From a virus (taxonomy: Duplodnaviria; Heunggongvirae; Uroviricota; Caudoviricetes), in the IMG/VR virus record IMGVR_UViG_2529292883_000003, positions 1 through 17,115 of that record: 17,115 nt of DNA, one strand, 5' to 3'. Made by a program: the position numbers and the translations under genes. Positions 1 to 15,879 of the stretch are shown here, in pieces (position 1 is the stretch's first letter; each line of letters starts with the position of its first letter). The notes under the pieces were generated by a model. It was not told the origin of the DNA. It searched no databases and saw only the letters and a program-made list of their open reading frames with translations.

Positions 1-405
1 CATATCCCATATGTAGTCGCCATTCAGCGCTGCCGCCCCCGGCGCACTGATTGCTGTTCCATCGACAAGACGCAATCTCTTTCCGCTTGTACAACCCGTA
101 ACTGCGGCGCGTACAGCAAGTGTTTGTGCGGCAAGTATGCCAAACCAGTCGGCGGCATTCCGCAGCCGCTTCAGGAGAGCCACGTCAGATAATGTTGCAA
201 CGTCATGGAGCTGAGCCCATGCAGTGACTTCACGTAATGACATCCCCCCGGGGCCGTAAGCCAGCCCCAGACGTAGCAGAGTTGCAGCATCACGAATTTC
301 GCGGCGGCGGGTTAGAGCCCCGGCATTACGTGCCGAAGTATCCAGTTCTTCGGGCTTACCAATATGGGCCAGAATTGCTGACCAGTTATCGTGAGAGTAA
401 TTCAT
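1..405 (-). CDS. insL: IS186 transposase, N-terminal ~135 codons (partial; apparent frameshift at the C5 run 36-40)
   Basis: Minus-strand translation from ATG 405-403 gives MNYSHDNWSAILAHIGKPEELDTSARNAGALTRRREIRDAATLLRLGLAYGPGGMSLREVTAWAQLHDVATLSDVALLKRLRNAADWFGILAAQTLAVRAAVTGCTSGKRLRLVDGTAISAP..., matching the IS186 transposase as I remember it. Not in the ORF track because the frame runs off the window edge. Confidence 0.85.
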   Translation of the reverse strand, partial: MNYSHDNWSAILAHIGKPEELDTSARNAGALTRRREIRDAATLLRLGLAYGPGGMSLREVTAWAQLHDVATLSDVALLKRLRNAADWFGILAAQTLAVRAAVTGCTSGKRLRLVDGTAISAPGAAALNGDYIWDM

Positions 406-460
406 CGGCACGTTAAATCATATCAGGCGTAATACCACAACCCTTAAGTTAGCGCTTATG
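1..460 (-). mobile_element. IS186 (IS4 family) end, continues beyond window start
   Basis: Transposase N-terminus recognised (see CDS 1-405), ~55 nt untranslated leader, and the minus-strand sequence CATAAGCGCTAACTTAAGGGTTG (plus 438-460) that I recall as the IS186 terminal repeat. Outer boundary at 460 is approximate and rests on memory of the IR. Confidence 0.7.
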
Positions 461-482
461 GGATTTCTCCCCGCTGGTCCTC

Positions 483-638
483 TTACTCCCCAAGTTCGTA
501 AGCTGTGAAGACAGCGACCTCCGTCTGGTCGGTTCGGATTCGTACCTCGCAGAGGTCTTTCCTCGTTACCAGTACCGTCACTATAACGATTAAACAGATG
601 ACGATCAGGGTGATTAACATCGCCTTTTGCTGCTTCAT
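483..638 (-). CDS. hok: Hok/Gef family type I toxin (HokD/RelF-like), 51 aa
   Basis: MKQQKAMLITLIVICLIVIVTVLVTRKDLCEVRIRTDQTEVAVFTAYELGE: one hydrophobic helix followed by the conserved RKxLCE..R....EVA.F.AYE Hok/Gef signature. Start ATG at 638-636, stop TAA at 485-483. Confidence 0.85.
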   Translation of the reverse strand: MKQQKAMLITLIVICLIVIVTVLVTRKDLCEVRIRTDQTEVAVFTAYELGE

Positions 639-695
639 AGCCCGCTTCTTCTTGCCTTTCAGCACGTAAGAGACTAACCTACGTTTGTAAGGCAT
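483..695 (-). CDS. mok: Mok: N-terminally extended frame sharing the hok stop, 70 aa
   Basis: ORF-track 70-aa frame (MPYKRRLVSYVLKGKKKRA + Hok) starting 57 nt upstream of hok in the same frame, as for chromosomal mok/hok pairs. Confidence 0.6.
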   Translation of the reverse strand: MPYKRRLVSYVLKGKKKRAMKQQKAMLITLIVICLIVIVTVLVTRKDLCEVRIRTDQTEVAVFTAYELGE

Positions 696-758
696 AGATT
701 GGGCCCCAGATTAATGTTAAGCCTCTTGCCGGATGCGTAATATCAACTGGGGTTTTTT
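687..758 (+). ncRNA. sok: putative Sok antisense RNA
   Basis: Plus-strand segment antisense to the mok start region, ending in CCCCAG...CTGGGG followed by TTTTTT (753-758), which looks like an intrinsic terminator. The 5' end is placed by analogy with known hok/sok loci, not seen directly. Confidence 0.35.
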
Positions 759-1241
759 CTATCTGCCTTTGATTTTCATGCCCAAGGCAGATAGCCTCAA
801 GCCCCCGCAGCCATACTATTTAACCCCCGTTACCTCGCCAATATGAAATCAATCAGAAAGGCGATCCATAAGAACAATAGCAAGACAATAAATTGCCACC
901 ACAGCCGCAATAGCCAACGCACACTTGAGAACCAGCACGACAACCTCCTGTATTGGACGTGCACCTGCCCTGATAAATATGAGGCTGTCTCGTCAGTGAT
1001 TCAATACAACTATTGGGTATAGTTTCTGTGATTTTGTTCTGTAGAAATGGAACACAACAACCAGTCACCACCAGCACTTCTTTAAATACGCTAAGTCCGA
1101 CGCAAGCTAACCTTCTAGTCCGCTTTGAGCGAGGAGCGGACCTGACATTGGGGTATGTCAATTTATGGGAGCAGGTCAGGGGCATTAATGCCCCCATATG
1201 GAATAAGTTTCACCTTGACATTAATAATGCTCTTGGGACAA

Positions 1242-2987
1242 TCAAAAACTTTGCTTTAGTGGTACTTCTCTTGACATGTGGATACCATCTTTTGAACGCC
1301 TGCGCTCTTCAAAATAGATAGCTAATGATAAATAGATTATTGAGTTTCTAGCTAATCCAATGAGTTGCATGAGCCTTGATTCAAATTGGCTTATTGGTAT
1401 TAATAGAGAGTGGGAAGATAGTTTTTCTTTTTCATAGATCTTTGATTTTAGATCTGTAAGTCTTAAACTCATCTTATTAACACCATCTTCGAGTTGTTGC
1501 GCTAAACAATTATCCCCATCTTTTTTTGCTTGCTTCATTTTTAATTTTTCATCCCGGATTTTATCTGGTAGTACATTAACTTCTTCTTGGATCTTTCTAA
1601 ATTCACCATCATTATAAGTATTATATGATGTTGCAAGTTCATAGCCAAAATCATCAACTATTTTTAATGAACGATGTTCCATGGCATTTCTAATCTCTGC
1701 AAATGCCACTGCATTTGGATCTAACCACTTTGTTGCTGAATCAGAGTCACCAACTTTACGGATATCTTTTAATATATAGAATAAAGCGTGAATGAAATGA
1801 TTGTCGCTATCTTTCAGCTTTTTATGTGGTTTCCATTTAGTATTATTACTTGTAAAGTCACGGAATAAATTATCTATACTGATTATTTTGTCATGTTTCA
1901 GATCGTTCAAATCAAAGAAGCGACTAATTAAATATGCTACTTTATCAAAAATTGAATATACTATTCTGAATGCTGACTTATACTGAGCAATCTTCAAGTT
2001 ATTAATTGAGTAAGTCATATCCTCAACGTGTTGATATGTTGAGTTGAATATATGAGGGTTATCATCAGGTATATCTTTTGAAGAAAAAATCAAGTACCGA
2101 GCATAACAGTAATCATTTTTTAATTCATCATAATTACCGTGATAAGATAATTCTTCAGACATGGTGAGAGAACTATTAAGCGATTGAACGAATGAGGGGA
2201 ATTCGAAAACATCCTGATAAGTAATCGGGTACTCGCAAGCATCATTCAAATCATTAAGAAAGAGTCTTTTACTAGCGCACCATTCTAAATAGTTTTTCTG
2301 TTTTCTACATGTGGTTTTTTCAGTGTATTCTTTAAAGTAATCGAAGTCCGATGTTTCGAATAACTCCTCGAACCATTTTTTAAAGTTGAATAATTTGCCG
2401 CCTTTCTCAAGTGGCACTCTTTGTTCAGGATATAGTTGATCAATATTCTCAAAACCTTTTTTCACAAGTTCATAAGCGATATAGTAATGATATTCTGAAT
2501 GTCCATTATCATAAAGTGAAAGCCCAAGAAAAATTTCATTATTGGCTTTTGCTATAATTGCAACGAGATTATTATCTATAGAAATAGCTTTATCATAGTG
2601 GGGAATGCAACATAACGTTCTACCTTGTGATGAAAGGCGATTAGCTAAATTTGTCTCAATCATAGACCTAAGACTATTATATGCATGAGTATTATTATCA
2701 TGTTCTCTCCAGTCTACTTTAGGTAGCGCATGTAAAGCTTTCCTGTAAAAGATGACCGATTTCATCAAATCATCTGAATACCACTCAGTTTTACGTGTTT
2801 CATAAAGTACAGAGTAACAATTTCCTAAGCAGTAAAGATAATGAGCCTCGTCTAATTGGTGAGTAAAGGTGAAATCCCGTTCTGTAAAACTCTCTATTAA
2901 TGAAGATAAAGAAACGTGATCACCTTTGATGATGTATTCATCCGCACGTTTACTAAACTCATCAAGTTTATCTTTTTCCAATAACAA
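1242..2987 (-). CDS. hypothetical protein, 581 aa, no family recognised (island cargo)
   Basis: Long uninterrupted minus-strand ORF in AT-rich DNA. TTG start at 2987-2985 sits 5 nt after a perfect AAGGAG (plus 2993-2998 is CTCCTT). No in-frame ATG nearby. Contains an R-x4-H motif (AEIRNAMEHRS) and TPR-like helices; both are weak motif-level hints. Confidence 0.6.
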   Translation of the reverse strand: MLLEKDKLDEFSKRADEYIIKGDHVSLSSLIESFTERDFTFTHQLDEAHYLYCLGNCYSVLYETRKTEWYSDDLMKSVIFYRKALHALPKVDWREHDNNTHAYNSLRSMIETNLANRLSSQGRTLCCIPHYDKAISIDNNLVAIIAKANNEIFLGLSLYDNGHSEYHYYIAYELVKKGFENIDQLYPEQRVPLEKGGKLFNFKKWFEELFETSDFDYFKEYTEKTTCRKQKNYLEWCASKRLFLNDLNDACEYPITYQDVFEFPSFVQSLNSSLTMSEELSYHGNYDELKNDYCYARYLIFSSKDIPDDNPHIFNSTYQHVEDMTYSINNLKIAQYKSAFRIVYSIFDKVAYLISRFFDLNDLKHDKIISIDNLFRDFTSNNTKWKPHKKLKDSDNHFIHALFYILKDIRKVGDSDSATKWLDPNAVAFAEIRNAMEHRSLKIVDDFGYELATSYNTYNDGEFRKIQEEVNVLPDKIRDEKLKMKQAKKDGDNCLAQQLEDGVNKMSLRLTDLKSKIYEKEKLSSHSLLIPISQFESRLMQLIGLARNSIIYLSLAIYFEERRRSKDGIHMSREVPLKQSF

Positions 2988-3212
2988 AGTGACTCCTTAA
3001 CTGTTCATACGAACTGAATGACAAGCTTCGATTTAAAACTAAACATATAAATGTACTATTTAATTATTTATTATATGTGGATTTGGTCGATAATGCTGAT
3101 CTAGTATTTAAGTTTAGGAGCATAAAAAGTGATCTACTCCTCACAATTTAACATAGCGCATGGGTTCAACTTCCGCTTCTGGCACAGGGCTGCTGTTGCA
3201 GCACTGACAACC

Positions 3213-3686
3213 TTAGACTTCAATCGATTCAGAGATCTCTAACGCATCATCGACTTCAATGCCCAGATAACGGACTGTGCTTTCCAGTTTCCTATGGCCC
3301 AACAGAAGTTGGATCACCCAAAGATTCTTGGTTTTCTTGTAGATCAGGTAAGGTTTTGTTCTTCTCATGGAGTGTGTGCTGTAAAGCGAAGCTTCGAGAC
3401 CAAGCTTTTCTACCCACCCATGAAAAATTCGGCTGTATTGCCGGGTTGATATGTGCCGGTTCGTTCCGATCCGAGACCGAAACAAGAAGTCTTTACTGTG
3501 CAAATTGCCAAGCTTTATCAATGCAGCAACAGCTTCTCTTGTCCCTTTGGTTATCTCAAATTGCACAGGGCTACCGATTTTCTGTTGCAGCACCATTACT
3601 CTGCTTGAAGCCGAGCTGCCATATGCAACATCAGATACTTTGAGGTTCACCAGATCACAGCCTCGTAGCTTACTGTCTAAGACCAT
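3213..3686 (-). pseudogene. small tyrosine recombinase (integrase family) remnant, N-terminally truncated
   Basis: 157-aa ORF with box I arginine (KLRGCDLVNLKVSDV) and the C-terminal HSMRRT...LLGHRKLESTVRY catalytic signature (R, HxxR, Y). The same frame stays open upstream to 3803 but is broken by TGA at 3746-3744, with no start codon upstream; only ~6 residues precede box I. Confidence 0.55.
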
Positions 3687-4017
3687 GTTGAACTGAGCTA
3701 AATCACGCGTTTTACCTTCCAGTTCAAGCCGGATTCGGCTCCCTCAGATATGAGATATCTGGAGTTGTCTTTTTTGGCCTATGATACGGTCTTTGTTCCA
3801 CTGTTACATGTTCATAATCAAATCTCCTGCAATGCTGGAGATTTGAGTACGGTTGTCCCTTATGAGCGAGTATTGGACATTGAGTTACTTGTATCAGGGG
3901 TGGTCAAAATATTGGCACTTAGCCATAAAGGTATTTACATCAATGATTTATGATCTTTCCTTAGCAAGATTGCTACTTTTTTGTGAAGTATGTTCATGTC
4001 AATAGTAGGTAATTAAA

Positions 4018-4047
4018 TTTACAAAATCGCGAATTAATGGTTATATA
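4018..4047 (+). promoter_or_regulatory. putative sigma70 promoter for the plus-strand island gene
   Basis: TTTACA (4018-4023), 17-nt spacer, TTATAT/TATATA (4041-4047), about 45 nt upstream of ATG 4090. By-eye match only. Confidence 0.3.
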
Positions 4048-4089
4048 TCCCCTATGGCTTGTTTTTTTAATACGAGGAATCAAACGGAT

Positions 4090-4413
4090 ATGGATAATAA
4101 TATTCTATTTATTTCATCAATTGAGCGGTTTAATGATTTCGAAGAGGTTGTTAGACGCTTTTTACAGCGAATGTTTAATGCAGATGCTTATATTACAAAT
4201 GGCCCTTATGACGGAGGCAAGGACGTCGTTTACTCAGTAAGAGGTCGTGAAATAAGAGAGGTAATACAGGTATCTATTATAAAAAAAGGTTTAGAAGATA
4301 AACTTGAAGAAGACTTAATCAAAACAGATGATTTAATTAAAAAATATAATTACCCTCCTGTATTGAATTTTTTTGGAGCCACAAAATATCTGAAAGCAAG
4401 CTTGAAGTTTTAA
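4090..4413 (+). CDS. Mrr-like (restriction-endonuclease fold) N-terminal ORF, 107 aa, probably the 5' part of a frame-disrupted gene
   Basis: MDNNILFISSIERFNDFEEVVRRFLQRMFNADAYITNGPYDGGKDVVYSVRGREIREVIQVSIIKKG... has the DGGxD core typical of Mrr-type PD-(D/E)xK nucleases. The expected Q-x-K lysine is not obvious (IQVS). GAGGAA lies 12 nt upstream of ATG 4090. The ORF-track start at 4054 is an in-frame extension. Confidence 0.5.
   Translation: MDNNILFISSIERFNDFEEVVRRFLQRMFNADAYITNGPYDGGKDVVYSVRGREIREVIQVSIIKKGLEDKLEEDLIKTDDLIKKYNYPPVLNFFGATKYLKASLKF
4368..4374 (+). repeat. T7 homopolymer at the frame junction between ORF 4090-4413 and ORF 4560-6359
   Basis: The downstream frame is open from 4350 (after TAA 4347-4349); the upstream frame closes at 4411-4413. 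The T7 run is the only homopolymer in the 4350-4410 overlap and fits the X XXY YYZ slippery pattern (T TTT TTT) in the upstream frame. Confidence 0.5.
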
Positions 4414-4559
4414 AAAGCAATGCCAGAAAAAATTATGGGATAACCCTCGAGTTTTATGACGCAAATAGAATATCTCAAAAAATCACCAATGATTATCCGG
4501 AGATATTAACCTTTCTTCTTGAGGAAGTTCACAATTATCAATCCTCTAAAAAGGATGAG

Positions 4560-6359
4560 TTGGACATAAAAGAAATAGCATTTTACGAATATCTGGTGTT
4601 AAGTAAAGATGCTGCCAATTTAAAGAATGTAATTATTGATTCATACATAGTTTCATTACTTACAGGTCAAGGGAAGTCAGAGCATGATTTAATCAATGAA
4701 ACCCAAATTCTTGGGGTACACAATGAAACTCTTAAAAATAGATTGTATCTTTTAAAGCGAGATAATCGAATTATCCTTGATGGAGATTTATACAGTCTGT
4801 CTGAGGTTGAAAGTAAGAGAATCAGGAATCTTGAGTTAAAAGAAATAGCCAAAAGGAATGAGGTTTTAACAATAATTGGTAATGCGACCTCAAAATACTT
4901 TAGTGAAAATATATCCACCGAGGTTCTTGACCTAATTAAGGAGGCTTATGCTGAGTCGGTCAATCTACAGCTTAATGAATTAAACTTCGAATCCCCAAGA
5001 AATCAAATTGTTAAAGGAATTATTAAACAACTGGAAAAATTGATAACTGAAAAAGGAAAAATAAACAACTCATTGTCTTCAAAATTAGCTAATGAGCTTG
5101 TTGAGTTATCTGGGAGAAATGAATATCTTTCAGACTATTGCTCATCAAGGCTATGCATAACTCTATTAAATCAAAAGAAACTTGAAAGATATATTGACAA
5201 TAAAACGTTTTTTTTATACCTAGATGCCCCAGTATTGATTCCATATCTTGTTGCATTAAGATACGATAAAATTTCTAACAGTGAAAAATCGATAAGCACT
5301 GTTAAAACGTTAAAGAAAATAGTATTTAACCTTAAAAACAGACACATTCGTGTAACCCAAGAACATCTTGAAGAAACAGTACGACATTTATTAAATGGAA
5401 TGAAAATTAGTTCTTTTGCCAATGATGAATTAGTTAGGAAGATAGGTAATTCTAAAAACGTATTTTTTAATACATATATAAATATTAAAAAAAGCAAACC
5501 TAGTAGTTACAATTTCGAAAATTTTTTAGAAGATTTTATTGGCTATGAAGATACATCTGGCTCTATCGATGCAAAGTTTTATAAACTAATTCGTTCAGTC
5601 TCTCAGTATTTAAATCTAAATAGAATTGAAGTTATTTCAACCTCAGTTTATCAGGAAGATAGAATCATTGAGGAAGTTGCCAGGAAGTTTTCTAGGCAAA
5701 TATCTGGTCCAAAAAAAAGAAATCCACGAACTATTAATAATGATATTTATGCTGCATTAACCTTATCTGATGACAGCATACACTGCGATGAAAAGGGAGT
5801 CGGTCAAATCCCTATGCTAATTACATGGGATGCAACTCAGCACACACTCAGGAATATAGTAAGACAAAAAGATAAATATAAAGAATGGTTGGTTTACACT
5901 CCCCAAAGAGCAATTGAAAGACTTTCAATGTTAGAAATGAAAATTGAGAGCTCCGCAATTAAAGATGGTGTTTTAGCAATTATTGATGAGGATTATTTCT
6001 TCAAGGAAAACGATTCAAATTTAATCGATACTCTGGCATTGCTAGTGAAAGATGATTCCCCTGACGCTGGCGCATTAACAACTTTGATAAATAAACTATC
6101 GCAAAGGGTAACCGAGGAGTCTTTAGATTCTCAAGATATTGAAAAAGAAGCATTCAATACTTTAAACGAGATTTTAGTATTTACTTACACTGAGTTTAAA
6201 GATAATTTTAGCCAGGTAAAAATTGTTTTCAGTGATGAAAAATATACCGACTCAATCTTTGAGATACTAACCTCAACACTTAAGCGACCTTTCGATGATT
6301 CTTCTAGAATAGAGTATAAAAATAAAATAGACGAAATAATTTCAGTTCACTTTGGTTGA
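4560..6359 (+). CDS. hypothetical protein, 599 aa as called (TTG start); likely C-terminal part of a ~755-aa nuclease-domain fusion
   Basis: Long ORF in AT-rich DNA. Its frame has no ATG, GTG or TTG between 4350 and the TTG at 4560, and no internal Met for ~275 codons. Weak AAGGA 4 nt before the TTG. No family recognised. Confidence 0.55.
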   Translation: MDIKEIAFYEYLVLSKDAANLKNVIIDSYIVSLLTGQGKSEHDLINETQILGVHNETLKNRLYLLKRDNRIILDGDLYSLSEVESKRIRNLELKEIAKRNEVLTIIGNATSKYFSENISTEVLDLIKEAYAESVNLQLNELNFESPRNQIVKGIIKQLEKLITEKGKINNSLSSKLANELVELSGRNEYLSDYCSSRLCITLLNQKKLERYIDNKTFFLYLDAPVLIPYLVALRYDKISNSEKSISTVKTLKKIVFNLKNRHIRVTQEHLEETVRHLLNGMKISSFANDELVRKIGNSKNVFFNTYINIKKSKPSSYNFENFLEDFIGYEDTSGSIDAKFYKLIRSVSQYLNLNRIEVISTSVYQEDRIIEEVARKFSRQISGPKKRNPRTINNDIYAALTLSDDSIHCDEKGVGQIPMLITWDATQHTLRNIVRQKDKYKEWLVYTPQRAIERLSMLEMKIESSAIKDGVLAIIDEDYFFKENDSNLIDTLALLVKDDSPDAGALTTLINKLSQRVTEESLDSQDIEKEAFNTLNEILVFTYTEFKDNFSQVKIVFSDEKYTDSIFEILTSTLKRPFDDSSRIEYKNKIDEIISVHFG

Positions 6360-6519
6360 CTGTTTGGGGAGAGGGTTCTCCCCAATTAAAGAACTTATTA
6401 ACAATATCGATAAAGTTGTGAACTGTTCCCCATGGATTGATGCAGATAGGTGCTATCAACATCCGCCTTTGGCACAAAGCGGACAACCACGCTAGCTCTA
6501 CCGACATGGCTTTTCCCAT
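6304..6519 (-). CDS. hypothetical small ORF immediately downstream of ydaV (ydaW position), C-terminus runs into the island boundary
   Basis: 71-aa ORF-track frame (MGKAMSVELAWLSALCQRRMLIAPICINPWGTVHNFIDIVNK...). The first ~45 codons lie in normal-GC DNA, the tail reads through the boundary hairpin. No convincing SD. Confidence 0.25.
   Translation of the reverse strand: MGKAMSVELAWLSALCQRRMLIAPICINPWGTVHNFIDIVNKFFNWGEPSPQTVNQSELKLFRLFYFYTLF
6364..6385 (+). terminator. hairpin just after the 599-aa ORF stop (possible terminator / island boundary)
   Basis: TTGGGGAGA-GGGT-TCTCCCCAA: 9-bp stem with 4-nt loop, 5 nt after TGA 6357-6359. No U-tract follows on either strand, so terminator function is uncertain. 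Confidence 0.3.
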
Positions 6520-6572
6520 TGCTTTAAGTGCGTCAAAAAACAGTCTCCATTAAAATTTCCTCCCGATAAAAA

Positions 6573-7319
6573 TTACTTCGCAGTTCCTGGCTGGACGACA
6601 TTCGGACGCCAGCTCTCCCAGTTAAAATTCACCCAGCGTCCGCCGTTCATGGTCATGCGATCCATAATCCGCTCGCCGAGCAATGTTTTCATCGCCTCAT
6701 AGTTCAGGTTTGTCAGCATTCCCACGCCGCGCATCGACGCTGTCCGGCGATCAACAATCTGGTGCAGTACCACCTGCTCGTTTTTCGTATCGCGCTGAAT
6801 ACCAATTTCATCAAGAACCAGCAGATCAACTTCGCACAGTTCCCGCAAAAATTTTTCGCCTGACTGCCCGTCGTCATAGCTGGCGTGCAGGGCGCTCATA
6901 ACATCAGCCACGGTAACCACAATCACTGTCTGACCGTCTTTCAGCAGGCGATTCCCGATAGCCGCCGCCAGATGGTTTTTTCCGGTACCAGGTTTTCCAC
7001 TGAACGCAAAATTTGTACACCCGACCATCAGTTCATCGGCGATGAATTTCGCCTGGCTCAACGCGTATCGCTGACCGTCGTTCTGCACCTGGTAATTCGA
7101 AAACGAGCATTTGCGGTGCAATGGCTGGATGCCAGAGCGATTCAGAATTTTTTCCACCCGCAACTGACGATTCTGACGGTTGATCTCCTCACAACGTTTC
7201 TGGCCTTCGGAAAGTTGCCACTCACGCCACTCCGCCACCGTCTTGAATGGCGCGGTTACATGTGACGGGGCCAGTCTGCGGATACGTTCAAGAACGCCGC
7301 CTGTCGCAATATTTTTCAT
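6573..7319 (-). CDS. ydaV: Rac prophage replication protein, DnaC/IstB-like helicase loader
   Basis: 248 aa; Walker A GKPGTGKNHLAAAIG; recognised as YdaV; SD-like GGGGG upstream of ATG 7319. Confidence 0.85.
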   Translation of the reverse strand: MKNIATGGVLERIRRLAPSHVTAPFKTVAEWREWQLSEGQKRCEEINRQNRQLRVEKILNRSGIQPLHRKCSFSNYQVQNDGQRYALSQAKFIADELMVGCTNFAFSGKPGTGKNHLAAAIGNRLLKDGQTVIVVTVADVMSALHASYDDGQSGEKFLRELCEVDLLVLDEIGIQRDTKNEQVVLHQIVDRRTASMRGVGMLTNLNYEAMKTLLGERIMDRMTMNGGRWVNFNWESWRPNVVQPGTAK

Positions 7320-7325
7320 GGTCAG

Positions 7326-8183
7326 TTACCCCCTGAAGCCTGGTGGGATCGCACTGTCCGGTAACGAAACGGTGTTAACCCGTCGGAGTAACGTCTCAGG
7401 TCGAACACCTTTCGGCGCGAACAAGCCCTGGTATTCGTTGGCGATGCTGTGTCGAATCACCTGCTCAGGTGAAAAACCCTGCTGGCGGAATTTTTCCAGC
7501 TCCCGTATCGCCCCGTTAGCGCCCTGCTCCGTTCGAATCGGTTTACGCAATGCCTGGCGAAATTCAACCCACTCACGCCAAAGCGAGAAAGAAATCCAGT
7601 TCGGCAAAGCAATATCCAGAGGGTCAAACTTTTTGATACCTAGATTCCCCCGGGGGGGATTTAGGGGGGGATCTGTTTTTAGATCTTTATCTGTATCTTT
7701 ATTAGTTGCCTTTGTGTTGACATCATGTTCAAACACCACTTCAACATCTGTTTGAACACCTGTTAAATTTCTCTCTTGTTTTGTTTGAACAACTGCTTCC
7801 TTTCTGCTTCTTCTGGCCTGAACAGATGCTTTTCCTGCGGCTGATTTTTTGGTTAATTTTTCCCTGACTGATGCCAGATCTTCCTCAATCCGAAGATGCA
7901 CCCATTCCTCGCCGTTATCGCAAAAAAACTCCTGCAAGGATGGTTCAACATCAGCCCATCGCTCGTTAGTCAGACGGGCAATTTTTGCCAGCCTGTTTTT
8001 AGGTATTGGCTTTCCTGTTTGCCAGTAATTGAACATCAGCAACAAATACGCACCATGCTCCTCTGCTGACAAATGCATGGTGTCAGCCAGGTAATCAGCT
8101 ATGTACAGTTGCATGTATGGTAATGCGGCCATAATTGCCCCGTATGATGCTGCCCGGTGGCTTAGAATAAGCACAAACAGCAT
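7326..8183 (-). CDS. ydaU: Rac prophage replication initiation protein (O-like)
   Basis: 285 aa, recognised as YdaU; stops 6 nt before the ydaV start (operon). Confidence 0.8.
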   Translation of the reverse strand: MLFVLILSHRAASYGAIMAALPYMQLYIADYLADTMHLSAEEHGAYLLLMFNYWQTGKPIPKNRLAKIARLTNERWADVEPSLQEFFCDNGEEWVHLRIEEDLASVREKLTKKSAAGKASVQARRSRKEAVVQTKQERNLTGVQTDVEVVFEHDVNTKATNKDTDKDLKTDPPLNPPRGNLGIKKFDPLDIALPNWISFSLWREWVEFRQALRKPIRTEQGANGAIRELEKFRQQGFSPEQVIRHSIANEYQGLFAPKGVRPETLLRRVNTVSLPDSAIPPGFRG

Positions 8184-8195
8184 GGAAACTTTTGC

Positions 8196-8618
8196 TTAAT
8201 GAACAATGACAGAATCGTCGGAAGACCCGCCGCCGCTGAAATGCGCTTTCCGGTAAACGGCCTGGACTGCATCATCATGCGCATCAATTGCCGTACTTAA
8301 CGCTTCCTGCGCCGCCAGTAATGCACGGCGTTCCAGGGTATCGAAGATGCAGAGTCGGTGACGCAGCTCGCGCGGAAGGATTGCCAGAATTGCAGGGATC
8401 AGTTTCTGAATTTTTTCCCTTTGCGCTTCCGTTTCACCTTTTAACCAACGGTGATAGATGTTCTGCTGATTATTCCAGTCCTTGCCTGGTACCAGGGGCA
8501 ATTCGCCGCCCCCCTGGCGCAGATATTCTTCAGTAATGGCATTGGCTACCCATGCCTGCCCTTTTTCGGCTGCCAGGGCTAACAACACTGACTCGATGTG
8601 CTCATGCTTGATTTTCAT
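8196..8618 (-). CDS. ydaT: Rac prophage protein YdaT
   Basis: 140 aa (MKIKHEHIESVLLALAAEKGQAWVANAITEEY...); start overlaps the ydaS stop (ATGA). Confidence 0.8.
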   Translation of the reverse strand: MKIKHEHIESVLLALAAEKGQAWVANAITEEYLRQGGGELPLVPGKDWNNQQNIYHRWLKGETEAQREKIQKLIPAILAILPRELRHRLCIFDTLERRALLAAQEALSTAIDAHDDAVQAVYRKAHFSGGGSSDDSVIVH

Positions 8619-8869
8619 GAATCAACTCCCATCAGCTTTTTCGTAGTAGTTTTATTTCTGCCAATAGTTAAAATTACATCGGCAGAAAATAATCCGTTTG
8701 ATGCATGAGCGATTTTTTCAGCGTAATTTGTTTCGCCGGTATATTCTGTGCGAGGCAATTTTCCGTTATCCATCCATTTGTAGATTGCTCTTTGGCTGAC
8801 ACCACAAATGTCGGCCACAACAGAAACGCGAACAGTTTTGATTACATCTTCAAGTGTTTTCTGGTTCAT
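8615..8869 (-). CDS. ydaS: Cro-like HTH regulator
   Basis: MNQKTLEDVIKTVRVSVVADICGVSQRAIYKWMDNGKLPRTEY... with an HTH. Start at ATG 8869-8867 chosen because GAGGGTGA precedes it; the ORF-track start at 8941 would lie 8 nt from the divergent racR start. Confidence 0.7.
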   Translation of the reverse strand: MNQKTLEDVIKTVRVSVVADICGVSQRAIYKWMDNGKLPRTEYTGETNYAEKIAHASNGLFSADVILTIGRNKTTTKKLMGVDS

Positions 8870-8948
8870 ATCACCCTCACAATGTGAACTTTGAGTACAT
8901 GCTATAACAGAACTGACAGTACATTCAAGAGCGAATATCATTGAACTT
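8870..8948. promoter_or_regulatory. divergent racR/ydaS promoter-operator region (OR-like)
   Basis: 79-bp gap between divergent starts containing two direct copies of GAACTnnnAGTACAT (8886-8900 and 8910-8924), 24 bp apart. Confidence 0.45.
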
Positions 8949-9368
8949 ATGGTTCATGAAGATAAAGCGCGTAAAGAGTTCGCCAGTAGGCTTGCGCTAG
9001 CCTGTGAAAACGCTGGTTATGAACAACATGGAAGGCAGGCAGAAATTGCCCGTCGAATGAAATTAACACCAAAAGCGGTTAGCAAATGGTTTAATGGCGA
9101 AACAATTCCTCGCCGAGAGAAATTAAGGGAATTAGCAACACTCATTGGAACAACACCAACCTATCTTTTGGGAGAGGATACAGAAGAAAGTGGACAGGTA
9201 CGTTTCTATCAGGAGTTAAATCCAAGACAAAAAATCATCATTGACCTTCTGGACGAGCTCCCTGACAGTGAGACAGATGAACTTTTAAAAACTCTTGAGG
9301 AGAAAAAACAGAAGTACAATGCAATTTACGAAGAGTTAGCACGAAAGAAAAAACAAAAAGCCTCTTAA
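8949..9368 (+). CDS. racR: prophage repressor, CI-like HTH protein
   Basis: 139-aa ORF divergent from ydaS with an HTH (LTPKAVSKWFNGETIP). Position matches racR; length differs from what I remember for K-12, so the allele may differ. Confidence 0.65.
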   Translation: MVHEDKARKEFASRLALACENAGYEQHGRQAEIARRMKLTPKAVSKWFNGETIPRREKLRELATLIGTTPTYLLGEDTEESGQVRFYQELNPRQKIIIDLLDELPDSETDELLKTLEEKKQKYNAIYEELARKKKQKAS

Positions 9369-9439
9369 ACCAGCATAAATCCGGTAGCGCCCCCCTCCGG
9401 GTTTGTGCTTCACTTTATCCCATCTCATTTTTTTACACA

Positions 9440-9490
9440 CAAAATGTACTTAAAGTACTTTACATCAATGAACACAAAGTACATCATATA
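9440..9490. promoter_or_regulatory. OL-like operator/promoter region downstream of racR
   Basis: ATGTACT (9444-9450, inverse of AGTACAT), 10-bp palindrome AAAGTACTTT (9452-9461) and AGTACAT (9478-9484): the same core as in the racR/ydaS gap. Confidence 0.35.
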
Positions 9491-9658
9491 CCTACCAACC
9501 CACCCCGCCCCACAGAACGCAGGGCAATACTTCGAGTTACCAGGCAGTGGTCAGGGGTTAAGTAGCCAGCCCGAGGCGTATGAACATGACGGCAGGGTTC
9601 AGATTTTGCAGTGCAGCAGGTTTCAGTTCCGCCACCCGGCGTTAAGGGGAGAGATAAG

Positions 9659-9793
9659 ATGGTGCATTACGAAGTAGTTCAGTATTTGATGGATTGTTGC
9701 GGTATCACTTACAACCAGGCTGTGCAGGCTTTACGCAGCAACGACTGGGATCTCTGGCAGGCAGAAGTCGCTATACGTAGCAACAAGATGTGA
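9659..9793 (+). CDS. ydaG: Rac prophage small protein YdaG, 44 aa
   Basis: MVHYEVVQYLMDCCGITYNQAVQALRSNDWDLWQAEVAIRSNKM preceded by GGGGAGAG; the ORF-track start at 9611 is an in-frame extension. Confidence 0.7.
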   Translation: MVHYEVVQYLMDCCGITYNQAVQALRSNDWDLWQAEVAIRSNKM

Positions 9794-9803
9794 GATTCGC
9801 AAA

Positions 9804-9959
9804 ATGCAAAAAATCGACCTCGGCAACAACGAATCCCTGGTGTGCGGCGTGTTCCCCAACCAGGATGGAACGTTCACTGCCATGACGTATACCAAAAGCA
9901 AAACATTTAAAACCGAAACTGGTGCGCGCCGATGGTTGGAGAAGCACACAGTAAGCTAA
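9804..9959 (+). CDS. ydaF: Rac prophage small protein YdaF, 51 aa
   Basis: MQKIDLGNNESLVCGVFPNQDGTFTAMTYTKSKTFKTETGARRWLEKHTVS; below the ORF-track length cut-off; stop overlaps the sieB stop by 4 nt (convergent). Confidence 0.65.
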   Translation: MQKIDLGNNESLVCGVFPNQDGTFTAMTYTKSKTFKTETGARRWLEKHTVS

Positions 9960-10444
9960 CGATTAAAACGTCTACTCCTGCTGTTCCAGAATAACTTCAT
10001 AAAATGGGAGTATTTTTCGGTGACGAGATAATAAGAACAGTTTGCGCTATCACTCTGATGTTGAATGATGCCCTTCCGTTCTAATTTTTTCATAACCGGG
10101 TTACGGCAAGGAGAAGTGATAATAAGATTTCCTGTTTTAAGGAAATCTTTAAATACAGCGATTTCTTTCTCAGATAAACGAAGCAATACTCGTTGCTCTG
10201 GTAGTAATGAATAATGCTTTTGAATATGTGCTCGCCATCTTGAGAAGGAAATGGCGACCACGAAAGAAAAGGCAAAAACGATAATCTGAAAGAGCCAAGG
10301 TATTTCAGTATAAGCATTGAATGCGACAGTAAACTCTTTCGGTATCAGCCAGAGAGTGAGACCAAAAATGATAATCGTATACATAAGTCTTTCGAGTGGC
10401 TCGTTAGCAAAAAGTTTCAACAATGGAGTAAATACATCCAACAT
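9956..10444 (-). CDS. sieB: superinfection exclusion protein B
   Basis: 162 aa from internal Met (MLDVFTPLLKLFANEPLERLMYTIIIFGLTLWLIPKEF...), membrane helices; the ORF-track frame is N-terminally over-extended. Confidence 0.8.
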   Translation of the reverse strand: MLDVFTPLLKLFANEPLERLMYTIIIFGLTLWLIPKEFTVAFNAYTEIPWLFQIIVFAFSFVVAISFSRWRAHIQKHYSLLPEQRVLLRLSEKEIAVFKDFLKTGNLIITSPCRNPVMKKLERKGIIQHQSDSANCSYYLVTEKYSHFMKLFWNSRSRRFNR

Positions 10445-10885
10445 ATCAATAACTCTCAACTGTAAGGGTATTGAAATGTTAACACAAGCTCTCGCTGTAG
10501 GGGTATAGCCGAGACCACCGAAGCCCGGAGGTGGTGAAATAAAACCGGGCACAACACGAAGGCGCATTTCCGATATCCATAAAGAGTCGGTCTTGTCTGT
10601 TAAATTTAAATGGTGGGAGTGCGCCTCCGGTTGTAAATAACGACATTGCTGTGTGTAGTCCTGGCGGCATCAGTTTTTTTCTTGAAGTTCGGCTGATGTC
10701 CGCCCTTTTTAAAGTGAATTTTGTGATGCGGTGAATGCGGCTAAGCGCACGTGGCACAGTTAAAAGTCATGTTAGTCCTTATTGGTTTGGGGGGGAAAGC
10801 CGACTGTAATTGTTAACTGGTTGCAGTCACCTGGAGGCACCAGGCACCGCATCAACAAAGTTCATTTGTAAAAATGGAGATAATT

Positions 10886-11107
10886 ATGATTGCACATCAC
10901 TTCGGAACTGATGAAATACCACGTCAGTGTGTGACTCCTGGCGATTATGTTCTTCATGAAGGCCGGACATATATTGCCTCGGCAAACAATATTAAAAAGC
11001 GAAAACTATATATTCGTAACCTGGCCACAAAAACATGCATTACTGACCGCATGATTAAAGTCTTCCTCGGTCGTGATGGGTTACCTGTAAAGGCGGAGTC
11101 ATGGTGA
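10886..11107 (+). CDS. kilR: Kil-like inhibitor of cell division
   Basis: 73 aa ([42 protein letters not shown]...), GGAGA 6 nt upstream of ATG 10886. Confidence 0.8.
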
Positions 11108-11277
11108 TGACTAAGAAAATAAAATGTGCTTACCACCTTTGCAAAAAAGACGTTGAAGAAAGCAAAGCTATTGAAAGAATGCTTCACTTCATGCACGGGA
11201 TTTTATCAAAAGACGAACCGAGAAAATATTGCAGTGAAGCTTGTGCCGAAAAAGACCAGATGGCACATGAACTTTAA
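11107..11277 (+). CDS. ydaE: small Cys-rich protein YdaE, 56 aa
   Basis: [56 protein letters not shown]; ATG overlaps the kilR stop (TGATG); below the ORF-track cut-off. Confidence 0.7.
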   Translation: MTKKIKCAYHLCKKDVEESKAIERMLHFMHGILSKDEPRKYCSEACAEKDQMAHEL

Positions 11278-11351
11278 TTAATTGACTATTCGAAACTGAA
11301 TTTATGCCAGAAATGGCAGGTATTCGCTCAACCTTAATTAAGGAGAAAAAC

Positions 11352-11627
11352 ATGATTACCAATTATGAAGCCACTGTTGTAACTACCGATGACATTGTTC
11401 ACGAGGTGAATCTGGAAGGAAAGCGCATTGGCTACGTAATTAAAACAGAAAATAAAGAAACCCCATTCACTGTGGTTGATATCGATGGTCCATCAGGCAA
11501 CGTAAAAACACTTGATGAAGGTGTCAAAAAAATGTGCCTGGTGCATATCGGAAAGAATCTGCCCGCAGAAAAAAAAGCCGAATTTCTGGCAACTCTAATT
11601 GCAATGAAATTAAAAGGTGAAATCTGA
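11352..11627 (+). CDS. racC: Rac prophage protein RacC, 91 aa
   Basis: MITNYEATVVTTDDIVHEVNLEGKRIGYVIKTENKETPF...; AGGAG 6 nt upstream of ATG 11352. Confidence 0.8.
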   Translation: MITNYEATVVTTDDIVHEVNLEGKRIGYVIKTENKETPFTVVDIDGPSGNVKTLDEGVKKMCLVHIGKNLPAEKKAEFLATLIAMKLKGEI

Positions 11628-11634
11628 AAGAAAT

Positions 11635-11655
11635 AGCCTGCGTATGGCGCAGGCT
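11635..11655 (+). other. stem-loop between racC and recE
   Basis: AGCCTGCG-TATGG-CGCAGGCT: perfect 8-bp stem, 5-nt loop, no U-tract. Confidence 0.35.
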
Positions 11656-11728
11656 ATGAACAGTGTGTATCCGGCAAGATCATTCACTGAACAAAACGAA
11701 TTTTAATCTGAGTTGAGGTTAAAAAACA

Positions 11729-14329
11729 ATGAGCACAAAACCACTCTTCCTGTTACGGAAAGCGAAAAAATCATCCGGTGAACCTGACGTCGTCCTGTGG
11801 GCAAGCAACGATTTTGAATCGACCTGTGCCACTCTGGACTACCTGATCGTTAAGTCAGGTAAAAAACTGAGCAGCTATTTTAAAGCTGTTGCCACGAATT
11901 TTCCTGTCGTTAATGACCTGCCCGCTGAAGGTGAGATCGATTTTACCTGGAGTGAACGCTATCAACTCAGCAAAGACTCCATGACATGGGAACTAAAACC
12001 GGGAGCAGCACCAGACAACGCTCACTATCAAGGCAATACCAACGTCAACGGCGAAGACATGACTGAGATTGAGGAGAATATGCTACTCCCAATTTCTGGC
12101 CAGGAACTGCCCATTCGTTGGCTTGCTCAACACGGCAGCGAAAAACCGGTAACGCACGTTTCACGCGACGGACTCCAGGCATTACACATTGCTCGGGCTG
12201 AAGAACTACCGGCTGTTACTGCCCTGGCTGTTTCCCACAAAACCAGCCTGCTCGACCCGCTGGAAATTCGCGAACTCCACAAACTGGTTCGTGACACTGA
12301 CAAAGTTTTCCCTAATCCTGGTAATTCAAACCTGGGACTGATAACTGCTTTTTTCGAAGCATACCTGAACGCTGACTACACCGATCGAGGACTGCTGACA
12401 AAAGAGTGGATGAAGGGTAATCGTGTTTCACACATCACTCGCACGGCTTCCGGTGCTAATGCTGGCGGCGGAAACCTCACCGATCGCGGCGAAGGTTTCG
12501 TACACGATCTGACGTCACTGGCGCGCGACGTAGCCACTGGCGTACTGGCCCGTTCAATGGATCTGGACATCTATAACCTTCATCCGGCACACGCTAAACG
12601 CATTGAGGAAATTATCGCTGAAAATAAACCGCCCTTTTCTGTTTTCCGCGACAAATTCATCACCATGCCTGGCGGGCTGGATTATTCCCGCGCCATCGTG
12701 GTTGCGTCCGTAAAAGAAGCACCAATTGGGATCGAGGTCATCCCCGCGCACGTCACTGAATATCTGAACAAAGTACTGACTGAAACCGATCATGCCAACC
12801 CTGATCCGGAAATCGTGGATATTGCCTGCGGTCGCTCCTCTGCCCCGATGCCGCAGCGAGTAACAGAAGAAGGAAAACAGGATGATGAAGAAAAACCGCA
12901 ACCATCTGGAACAACGGCAGTTGAACAGGGAGAGGCTGAAACAATGGAACCGGACGCAACTGAACATCATCAGGACACGCAGCCGCTGGATGCTCAGTCA
13001 CAGGTAAATTCTGTTGATGCGAAATATCAGGAACTGCGGGCAGAACTCCATGAAGCCCGGAAAAACATTCCATCAAAAAATCCTGTCGATGCCGATAAAT
13101 TGCTTGCAGCATCACGTGGTGAATTTGTTGACGGAATTAGCGACCCGAACGATCCGAAATGGGTAAACGGGATCCAGACTCGCGATTGTGTGTACCAGAA
13201 CCAGCCAGAAACGGAAAAAACCAGACCAGATATGAATCAACCTGAGCCAGTAGTGCAACAGGAACCGGAAATAGCCTGCAATGCCTGCGGCCAGACTGGC
13301 GGGGATAACTGCCCTGACTGTGGTGCGGTGATGGGCGACGCAACATACCAGGAAACATTCGATGAAGAGAGTCAGGTTGAAGCTAAGGAAAATGATCCGG
13401 AGGAAATGGAAGGCGCTGAACATCCGCACAATGAGAATGCTGGCAGCGATCCGCATCGCGATTGCAGTGATGAAACTGGCGAAGTCGCAGATCCCGTAAT
13501 CGTAGAAGACATAGAGCCAGGTATTTATTACGGAATTTCGAATGAGAATTACCACGCGGGTCCCGGTGTCAGTAAGTCTCAGCTCGATGACATTGCTGAT
13601 ACTCCGGCACTATATTTGTGGCGTAAAAATGCCCCCGTGGACACCACAAAGACAAAAACGCTCGATTTAGGAACCGCTTTCCACTGCCGGGTACTTGAAC
13701 CGGAAGAATTCAGTAACCGCTTTATCGTAGCACCTGAATTTAACCGCCGTACAAACGCCGGAAAAGAAGAAGAGAAAGCGTTTCTGATGGAATGCGCAAG
13801 CACAGGAAAAACAGTTATCACTGCGGAAGAAGGCCGGAAAATTGAACTCATGTATCAAAGCGTTATGGCTTTGCCGCTGGGGCAATGGCTTGTTGAAAGC
13901 GCCGGACACGCTGAATCATCAATTTACTGGGAAGATCCTGAAACAGGAATTTTGTGTCGGTGCCGTCCGGACAAAATTATCCCTGAATTTCACTGGATCA
14001 TGGACGTGAAAACTACGGCGGATATTCAACGATTCAAAACCGCTTATTACGACTACCGCTATCACGTTCAGGATGCATTCTACAGTGACGGTTATGAAGC
14101 ACAGTTTGGAGTGCAGCCAACTTTCGTTTTTCTGGTTGCCAGCACAACTATTGAATGCGGACGTTATCCGGTTGAAATTTTCATGATGGGCGAAGAAGCA
14201 AAACTGGCAGGTCAACAGGAATATCACCGCAATCTGCGAACCCTGTCTGACTGCCTGAATACCGATGAATGGCCAGCTATTAAGACATTATCACTGCCCC
14301 GCTGGGCTAAGGAATATGCAAATGACTAA
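11729..14329 (+). CDS. recE: exodeoxyribonuclease VIII (RecE)
   Basis: 866-aa ORF recognised as RecE ([41 protein letters not shown]...); GAGG upstream; stop overlaps the recT start. Confidence 0.9.
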
Positions 14330-15131
14330 GCAACCACCAATCGCAAAAGCCGATCTGCAAAAAACTCAGGGAAACCGTGCACCAGCAGCAGTTAAAAATA
14401 GCGACGTGATTAGTTTTATTAACCAGCCATCAATGAAAGAGCAACTGGCAGCAGCTCTTCCACGCCATATGACGGCTGAACGTATGATCCGTATCGCCAC
14501 CACAGAAATTCGTAAAGTTCCGGCGTTAGGAAACTGTGACACTATGAGTTTTGTCAGTGCGATCGTACAGTGTTCACAGCTCGGACTTGAGCCAGGTAGC
14601 GCCCTCGGTCATGCATATTTACTGCCTTTTGGTAATAAAAACGAAAAGAGCGGTAAAAAGAACGTTCAGCTAATCATTGGCTATCGCGGCATGATTGATC
14701 TGGCTCGCCGTTCTGGTCAAATCGCCAGCCTGTCAGCCCGTGTTGTCCGTGAAGGTGACGAGTTTAGCTTCGAATTTGGCCTTGATGAAAAGTTAATACA
14801 CCGCCCGGGAGAAAACGAAGATGCCCCGGTTACCCACGTCTATGCTGTCGCAAGACTGAAAGACGGAGGTACTCAGTTTGAAGTTATGACGCGCAAACAG
14901 ATTGAGCTGGTGCGCAGCCTGAGTAAAGCTGGTAATAACGGGCCGTGGGTAACTCACTGGGAAGAAATGGCAAAGAAAACGGCTATTCGTCGCCTGTTCA
15001 AATATCTGCCCGTATCAATTGAGATCCAGCGTGCAGTATCAATGGATGAAAAGGAACCACTGACAATCGATCCTGCAGATTCCTCTGTATTAACCGGGGA
15101 ATACAGTGTAATCGATAATTCAGAGGAATAA
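14322..15131 (+). CDS. recT: RecT single-strand annealing protein
   Basis: 269 aa from ATG 14322 ([32 protein letters not shown]...); the ORF-track start at 14265 is an in-frame extension inside recE. Confidence 0.9.
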
Positions 15132-15138
15132 TTCAGCC

Positions 15139-15175
15139 TGGCGGTGTAATACACCGCCAACTTGAAATATTTTTT
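15139..15175 (+). terminator. hairpin plus T-run after recT
   Basis: TGGCGGTG-TAATA-CACCGCCA (15139-15159) followed 10 nt later by TTTTTT (15170-15175); the spacing is long for a canonical intrinsic terminator. Confidence 0.3.
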
Positions 15176-15187
15176 ATGAGAAAAATT

Positions 15188-15382
15188 ATGAGATATGACA
15201 ATGTTAAACCATGTCCATTTTGTGGTTGTCCATCAGTAACGGTGAAAGCCATTTCAGGATATTACCGAGCGAAGTGTAACGGATGCGAATCCCGAACCGG
15301 TTATGGTGGAAGTGAAAAAGAAGCACTCGAAAGATGGAATAAACGAACCACTGGAAATAATAATGGAGGTGTTCATGTATAA
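15188..15382 (+). CDS. ralR: restriction alleviation protein Lar/RalR, 64 aa
   Basis: MRYDNVKPCPFCGCPSVTVKAISGYYRAKCNGCESRTGYGGSEKEALERWNKRTTGNNNGGVHV, Cys-rich. Confidence 0.8.
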   Translation: MRYDNVKPCPFCGCPSVTVKAISGYYRAKCNGCESRTGYGGSEKEALERWNKRTTGNNNGGVHV

Positions 15383-15584
15383 AATTACCGCCACTATTGA
15401 AAAGGAAGGTGGCACTCCTACTAACTGGACAAGATATTCAAAATCTAAACTAACGAAATCAGAATGCGAAAAAATGCTCTCAGGTAAAAAAGAAGCAGGC
15501 GTTTCCAGAGAGCAGAAAGTAAAACTGATAAATTTTAATTGCGAGAAACTTCAGTCCTCGAGAATTGCATTGTATTCAAATTAA
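15375..15584 (+). CDS. ydaC: Rac prophage protein YdaC, 69 aa
   Basis: MYKITATIEKEGGTPTNWTRYSKSKLTKSECEKMLSGKKEAG...; ATG overlaps the ralR 3' end. Confidence 0.7.
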   Translation: MYKITATIEKEGGTPTNWTRYSKSKLTKSECEKMLSGKKEAGVSREQKVKLINFNCEKLQSSRIALYSN

Positions 15585-15662
15585 AACTTCATAGCTGATT
15601 ATTAATAATCAACATCGGGCGTCAATTTCAGTCTAACATTGGCGCCTGCCAGAGGTGATGCG

Positions 15663-15878
15663 ATGGCACAAGTAATCTTTAATGAAGAGTGGATGGTTGA
15701 ATACGGCCTGATGCTTCGCACTGGTCTGGGGGCCAGACAAATTGAAGCATACCGCCAGAACTGTTGGGTGGAGGGCTTCCACTTCAAACGAGTATCTCCT
15801 TTAGGTAAGCCAGACAGCAAACGAGGGATTATCTGGTACAACTATCCAAAGATAAATCAGTTTATCAAAGACTCATGA
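15663..15878 (+). CDS. xisR: excisionase
   Basis: 71 aa ([44 protein letters not shown]...); GAGGTGA upstream; immediately precedes the integrase. Confidence 0.8.
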
Positions 15879-15879
15879 T

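Follow-up and report, generated by a model that had tools for sequence, protein, structure and literature searches.

HepS, a single-HEPN abortive-infection protein of the Gifsy-1 prophage, stays inactive until a tail-tip protein of a phage binds to it, whereupon it cleaves the anticodon loops of tRNAs (PMC13043305). Two further described systems combine a sensor with a HEPN domain in one polypeptide: DS-11, a validated one-protein CBS-HEPN defence system (PMC13092281), and DARNA/PD-T7-3, which pairs HEPN with an alpha-helical repeat sensor domain and brings about abortive infection by tRNA anticodon cleavage, with a phage-specific ligand as activator (bioRxiv 10.64898/2026.02.22.705581). The fusion of TPR repeats to LA2681-type HEPN domains was catalogued in 2013 (Anantharaman et al., Table 1; PMC3710099), and it is this architecture that is present in the subject of this report, a gene for a 581-aa protein on a 17,115-nt stretch of viral DNA (Caudoviricetes; IMG/VR record IMGVR_UViG_2529292883_000003, positions 1 to 17,115), the whole of which is referred to below as the window. 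We propose that this gene (here the HEPN gene) may specify a single-polypeptide, stand-alone, trigger-activated defence RNase, and we give the mechanism as a whole a probability of about 60%.

By analogy, HepS offers the best functional model for the window protein. Both are solo HEPN genes without a partner, found in an accessory slot by the replication genes of a lambdoid prophage, a likeness of context and logic only; HepS differs in being small, in carrying its motif at R100-H105, in lacking a TPR domain and in sensing through its own HEPN tetramer. DS-11 occupies the same place downstream of the same small tyrosine recombinase as the HEPN gene, while its sensor is a CBS domain and that of the window protein would be TPR, and an hhalign comparison of the window HEPN region with DS-11 gave no detectable relationship (probability 0.55%). 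In DARNA/PD-T7-3 the domain order is reversed, with HEPN at the N-terminus, the sensor binds single-stranded DNA, and the protein assembles into a dodecamer; the window protein matched none of the PADLOC models. With the LA2681 family itself, the window protein shares a hidden Markov model score far above threshold, N-terminal TPR repeats and an invariant R-N-x3-H, and it differs from the ~500-aa majority of the family by the ~70-residue coiled-coil hairpin of its own subfamily (~575-583 aa).

Family assignment and distribution

Its sequence places the window protein in the catalogued, computationally predicted LA2681 family of TPR-HEPN putative RNases. Pfam PF18733 (LA2681-like HEPN) matches residues 277-446 and a C-terminal stretch with an E-value of 5.4e-32 (111.2 bits against a cut-off of 27), and RefSeq already names the protein LA2681-like HEPN; NCBIfam gave no family for it. 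All 24 of the relatives of the HEPN region that were compared match PF18733 (best E 2.7e-79), 23 of them also match HEPN_Cthe2314, and one matches HepT-like. The TPR fusion listed for the LA2681 family is present in the window protein. A first-pass annotation, made from the window sequence alone, had described the protein as an orphan and, with due caution, as possibly HEPN-like. The first of these descriptions is wrong, given the Pfam score, the RefSeq name and the many relatives set out below. The second has gained considerably in strength, since the motif that prompted it proves to be the R-N-x3-H that is invariant in the family and sits where predicted core helix 3 ends, and together with the Pfam match this makes the assignment of a HEPN domain very probable.

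A word-indexed search returned 193 relatives, nearly all of 575-583 aa, which align end to end with the window protein at 47-91% identity and come from Enterobacter, Proteus, Xenorhabdus, Photorhabdus, Serratia, Vibrio, Shewanella, Pseudoalteromonas and others. An exhaustive profile search extended the family to 1,264 clusters at 50% identity (E <= 1e-3), 360 of them at E <= 1e-30. Most of these clusters are ~500-540 aa long and have the same two-part architecture, and members of this distant ~500-aa clade show Pfam TPR_1 together with PF18733. Family members also occur on a few large plasmids. In Escherichia coli the HEPN gene is present in only 5 of 5,426 complete genomes, and an E. coli protein of the LA2681 family is entered in the DefensePredictor tables as a 'predicted novel defense gene' with a log-odds of 9.1, by score alone (PMC13092281).

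Domain architecture and the R-x4-H motif

Conservation was read from an alignment of 93 homologues that reaches down to ~20% identity and includes the distant ~500-aa clade. R433 and H438 are invariant in all 93, and N434 is retained in 89; the other invariant positions are T112, N113, G122, R123, Y233, W236, D259, R297, H312, D348, K349, N396, L402 and R547. The signature of the HEPN superfamily, R-x4-6-H with a polar residue after the arginine, is thus found at R433-N434...H438, and these three residues are predicted to form a metal-independent RNase site. One R-x4-H arises in ~59% of shuffles of the protein, so that the weight of the evidence lies in the conservation and not in the motif as such. 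The first-pass annotation had warned of such chance matches, and rightly so; it read the motif (AEIRNAMEHRS) correctly but placed it around residue 440, slightly downstream of its true position. The second R-x4-H it had noted near the N-terminus, RDFTFTH (residues 37-43), does not stand, as its spacer is of five residues (R-x5-H) and it is unconserved, position 37 being mostly L, F or I in the homologues.

The AlphaFold2 model built from the 93-sequence alignment has a mean predicted local distance difference test score (pLDDT) of 90.5 and a predicted template modelling score of 0.89. In an earlier model, made with 30 close homologues, the HEPN core was of low confidence (pLDDT 66), which the addition of the distant ~500-aa clade remedied. 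Twelve helices are predicted in residues 5-239, where TPR-like repeats had indeed been suspected, followed by a conserved linker and four HEPN core helices (281-303, 331-357, 424-437 and 532-563). R433 lies in the last turn of the third of these and H438 just past its end, a position that agrees, at the level of secondary structure, with the canonical site of the HEPN motif at the end of core helix 3 or the start of the loop between helices 3 and 4 (PMC3710099). Between the third and fourth core helices the model has a strand (440-444), a short helix, a hairpin (456-489/493-524) and a returning strand (527-531). The coiled-coil hairpin is variable in length and sequence and is missing from the ~500-aa distant clade; on the alignment and the model, it is a predicted insertion specific to the gammaproteobacterial subfamily of ~575-583 aa.

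The gene and its translation start

The open reading frame (ORF) lies on the minus strand, a detail that the first-pass annotation had left out. In the 5' to 3' direction of this strand, the letters around the start are TAAGGAG-TCACT-TTG, with AAGGAG at 2998-2993, a 5-nt spacer at 2992-2988 and the TTG at 2987-2985, exactly the TTG start 5 nt after a perfect AAGGAG that had been described. The claim that no in-frame ATG is nearby holds as well, the first internal methionine being residue 75. Because the TAA that overlaps the Shine-Dalgarno (SD) sequence is an in-frame stop, the ORF cannot be extended upstream. Eight homologous loci, which belong to Enterobacterales and related genera, keep TAAGGAG-N5-TTG, and codon 1 is ATG in the Halomonas-type (L011) and Pseudomonas (L014) homologues. 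Some records carry the start assigned by the Prokaryotic Genome Annotation Pipeline at codon 3, which is ATC or ATT in two of the eight loci, and this alternative is therefore ruled out.

At 32.5% GC, the chance of 581 stop-free codons is ~2e-21. Pairwise ratios of nonsynonymous to synonymous substitution rates (dN/dS) against four homologues are 0.13-0.17, and by region the constraint is strongest in the HEPN core (0.04-0.09), intermediate in the TPR region (~0.13-0.18) and weakest in the coiled-coil insert (0.18-0.34). The HEPN ORF is a real gene under purifying selection and, as had been supposed from the strong SD, no artefact of an ORF caller.

A short palindrome, GTTCGTATGAAC, lies directly 5' of the SD on the minus strand (window 3003-3014). 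In the other loci this spot is taken by short palindromes of differing sequence, within a leader of which ~50 nt is conserved, and the element could be an operator or a translational control element. Scans for promoters and terminators found no more sites than shuffles give; the single candidate promoter for the HEPN gene, at 3090->3063, comes from this same scan.

A single-gene cassette

The HEPN gene travels alone, as an AT-rich cassette of ~2 kb (Table 1). Nucleotide homology to the corresponding loci of Kosakonia (L007, 90.5%) and Photorhabdus (L003, 81.8%) ends at ~1122/1136 on one side (it is L003 that reaches 1122) and at 3184/3186 on the other, and the genes beyond these limits differ. 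With flanking homology of only ~200 and ~105 nt, there is no room for a partner gene. When neighbours were compared in 30 loci from a set of species-representative genomes, the HEPN gene was the sole gene common to all, which indicates that it moves as a single cassette. No tandem repeats, such as would make up an RNA antitoxin array, occur in window 700-4200, and the adjacent antitoxin gene or repeat array by which HEPN toxin-antitoxin systems are recognised (HEPN-MNT, AbiF-type) was found neither in the 30 loci nor in this part of the window.

Neighbours in the other loci include integrases, transposases, NikA, Psu, SmpB/ssrA, a Mrr-type nuclease, a dynamin-like GTPase, a Ser/Thr kinase, and PIN-TPR-GreABC with PLD. 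The last of these arrangements is seen in Billgrantia pellis (L030 3217-7936), where the HEPN gene directly follows, on the same strand, genes for a 1,103-aa PIN-TPR-GreABC-type protein and a PLD-like nuclease, a locus that looks like a defence island. In several Acinetobacter species (L023, L025, L028, L031; ~5500-10500) a ~540-aa homologue is found between the genes for monomeric isocitrate dehydrogenase and pseudouridine synthase.

Table 1. Coordinates of the HEPN gene, its parts and adjacent features in the window.
Feature	Position	Strand	Basis or remark
Coding sequence, TPR + LA2681-type HEPN protein, 581 aa	1242..2987 (stop codon included)	minus	ORF, PF18733, RefSeq name, full-length homologues, dN/dS
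Shine-Dalgarno sequence AAGGAG	2993..2998	minus	5 nt 5' of TTG (2987-2985); sequence and conservation in 8 loci
TPR domain at the N-terminus (residues ~1-240; 12 helices in ~6 hairpins), proposed to act as sensor or autoinhibitor	2268..2987	minus	
LA2681-type HEPN domain, residues ~276-565	1293..2162	minus	Pfam match, model helices, family matches
Predicted catalytic motif R433-N-A-M-E-H438 (AGA AAT GCC ATG GAA CAT)	1674..1691	minus	invariance, helix position
Antiparallel coiled-coil hairpin, residues ~456-524, between HEPN helices 3 and 4	1416..1622	minus	model, alignment, dN/dS
Portable cassette: gene + ~200 nt upstream + ~105 nt downstream	1136..3186	minus	nucleotide homology limits against L007, L003
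Small tyrosine recombinase remnant, 157 aa, just upstream of the HEPN gene	3213..3686	minus	Pfam Phage_integrase; RefSeq pseudogene with internal stop
Divergent 756-aa gene without family, context only	4090..6359	plus	frameshifted in T-run 4361-4367; intact in NZ_CP123009

A recombinase-centred cargo slot

The window is a Rac-like E. coli prophage with intR, xisR, ralR, recT, recE, racC, kilR, repressor genes, ydaT, ydaU and ydaV, the gene names being taken from the annotation of the 99%-identical NZ_CP123009. Between ydaV (6573-7319) and hok/gef (483-695) lies an insert of 31-34% GC, against ~50% GC for the prophage, which holds the HEPN gene, the tyrosine recombinase remnant and the divergent 756-aa gene. 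The hok/gef ORF (minus strand; Pfam E 7.5e-19) specifies a type I toxin of the Hok/Gef family and borders the cargo slot on one side; hokD holds the matching place in other lambdoid prophages.

The intact form of the recombinase is 200 aa long and occurs in ~860 complete E. coli genomes. In the window (3170-3883) and four other loci (L034, L035, L036 and L037), the cargo on both sides of the recombinase is different each time. In NZ_AP026783, for example, the order runs from hokD through a gene for an unknown 326-aa protein, the recombinase, PD-T7-1 and a second unknown (314 aa) to the replication genes. PD-T7-1, identified in the recombinase slot by PADLOC (L034; E 3.7e-157), is an experimentally validated defence system (PMC9519451). 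In NZ_CP043937 it is DS-11 (WP_000257686.1; L037) that lies directly downstream of the recombinase, exactly at the position of the TPR-HEPN gene. Other cargo includes a restriction endonuclease, a dynamin-family protein and WP_000417871.1, which is a DefensePredictor prediction (PMC13092281). A search for an empty site uniting both flanks of the insert found none, other cargo filling the slot instead. The locus looks like a cassette-exchange hotspot for defence genes.

The 756-aa gene (WP_047674170.1 in NZ_CP123009) is present in only 3 of the 5,426 complete E. coli genomes, and its frameshift in the window is due to the loss of one T from a T8 run. Its protein has no Pfam, PADLOC or PHROG match, and an N-terminal fragment is only weakly Mrr_cat-like; because of its position, the gene is likely to be another uncharacterised defence cargo. 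Three near-identical South African bovine strains carry the same island with the 756-aa gene intact and, in the HEPN gene, a W93 codon changed from TGG to TGA (window 2709). Two Korean chicken strains carry an 80%-identical copy of the HEPN gene beside the integrase of an island inserted at ssrA.

The identical 581-aa protein is also specified by a Logan contig (L038), in another Rac-like prophage that lacks window 3674-6482, the 756-aa gene included, and joins window ~3673 to ~6483 across an 18-nt overlap. The cassette (1098-3673) is 99.9% identical between the two, against 94-97% for the prophage backbone (6483-12329), which suggests recent transfer or recombination of the cassette. In the window and L038, then, the HEPN gene is intact and the 756-aa gene is frameshifted or deleted, and in the South African genomes the reverse is seen. 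This reciprocal damage, observed in three lineages only, could reflect chance, a sequencing error in the homopolymer, or incompatibility of the two genes.

Proposed function and alternative explanations

The proposal of a defence RNase builds on the TPR, HEPN and coiled-coil architecture, the invariant RNase-type motif, the mobile single-gene cassette and the location in a defence hotspot. The enzyme would probably be kept inactive in uninfected cells and released from that state once its TPR domain binds a phage-derived protein or peptide. Activation would probably involve a rearrangement of HEPN subunits in a dimer or oligomer, possibly with participation of the coiled-coil insert, and composite R-x4-H sites formed across the interface would then cleave cellular RNA. 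By analogy, tRNA anticodon loops are the candidate target, being the commonest target of analogous enzymes, and cleavage would stop translation and abort the infection. The first-pass annotation had pointed to abortive infection or a toxin on the motif alone; the genomic context now gives that role a better footing, and it is still reached by inference.

Several observations weigh against the proposal. What triggers the protein, which RNA it would cut and how it oligomerises are guesses made by analogy. Structure prediction, which had been named in advance as a check on the HEPN reading, gave a mixed answer: four core helices with the motif ending the third are in its favour at the level of secondary structure, but in the fold search with the model the top matches listed were mostly TPR and other helical-repeat folds, and because of this the HEPN fold is left without confirmation in three dimensions. 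Sequence-profile searches of the PDB likewise matched the full-length protein only to TPR and coiled-coil entries, and the HEPN region only to CheA by chance. The protein has no match among PADLOC-DB v2.0.0 models (E <= 0.1) or PHROGs, and the LA2681 family is nearly absent from sequenced phages, with one remote match in 50,697 records. The literature on LA2681/PF18733 consists of the 2013 survey and one line of a DefensePredictor table, with no experimental study of any member. Of the five complete E. coli genomes with the HEPN gene, three carry the W93 stop, and the gene may therefore be dispensable or costly. In Acinetobacter, the homologues are flanked by housekeeping genes at a conserved chromosomal position, in contrast to the mobile settings of other loci.

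The W93 stop bears on two other explanations. One is that the HEPN gene is silent, decaying cargo, an AT-rich foreign gene that has been silenced, is on its way to loss and has no current function in its host. The broken state of the recombinase and the 756-aa gene in the window, the nonsense mutation of this same allele in three genomes, the rarity of the HEPN gene in E. coli and a promoter scan no richer than chance would all fit. We nevertheless regard such decay as unlikely, as the frame is intact both in the window and in the independent prophage background of L038, with an identical protein, purifying selection is strong across the clade, and conservation extends to the SD, the start codon and the 5' leader. 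A toxic gene would equally be expected to meet with nonsense inactivation of the kind seen in the three genomes, and the protein could be the toxin of an addiction or stabilisation module that aids persistence of the cassette or prophage, the antitoxin being a small protein, an RNA or its own TPR domain, and phage defence being incidental or absent. HEPN domains are frequent as toxins of toxin-antitoxin systems (PMC3710099), and this one is carried by mobile elements. Against this, no neighbour is conserved in the 30 loci, the flanks of ~200 and ~105 nt are short and tandem repeats are absent, there is no MNT-type partner, and an intramolecular 'antitoxin' gives no addiction because both halves decay together, all of which make an addiction toxin quite improbable.

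That the gene works together with its divergent 756-aa neighbour would accord with the single AT-rich island that holds both, which is confined to this lineage, and with the reciprocal damage between the window and the three W93-stop genomes. Such a two-gene system is highly improbable, as homologues of the 756-aa protein are absent from the 30 other HEPN loci, L038 has an identical, intact HEPN protein with the 756-aa gene deleted, and the recombinase remnant separates the two genes, which face apart; the first two of these facts led us to reject the neighbour as an obligatory partner or antitoxin. It is just as doubtful that the protein is a cellular RNA-processing or RNA-binding factor outside of conflict, its TPR part serving as a scaffold and its HEPN part acting as a housekeeping nuclease. 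Housekeeping or non-catalytic roles are on record for some HEPN proteins (PMC3710099), and the Acinetobacter slot would suit a housekeeping role, but the patchy horizontal distribution, the atypical composition, the linkage to mobile elements and defence genes, and the strict retention of the catalytic motif argue for something else.

Implications

If the defence RNase proposal is true, a large uncharacterised HEPN family gains a function, and a variant with a TPR sensor joins the one-protein 'sensor plus HEPN' effectors HepS, DARNA, DS-11 and ApeA. A wider and more tentative suggestion, which we think possible rather than likely, is that the TPR-LA2681-HEPN family, with at least 1,264 clusters at 50% identity, may be a widespread, unnamed single-protein abortive-infection system, in which the TPR domain would be the direct receptor of a phage protein and the subfamily-specific insert would gate assembly of the composite RNase site. 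Separately, and just as tentatively, the 200-aa recombinase may be a miniature platform by which prophages and islands exchange single-gene defence cargo (PD-T7-1, DS-11, the HEPN gene and others). As a test case, the HEPN gene itself is cheap and well defined: its cassette is 2 kb long, two point mutants suggest themselves and the proposed sensor domain can be removed. The recombinase slot, where two validated defence genes alternate with several unknowns, could guide the search for further defence genes.

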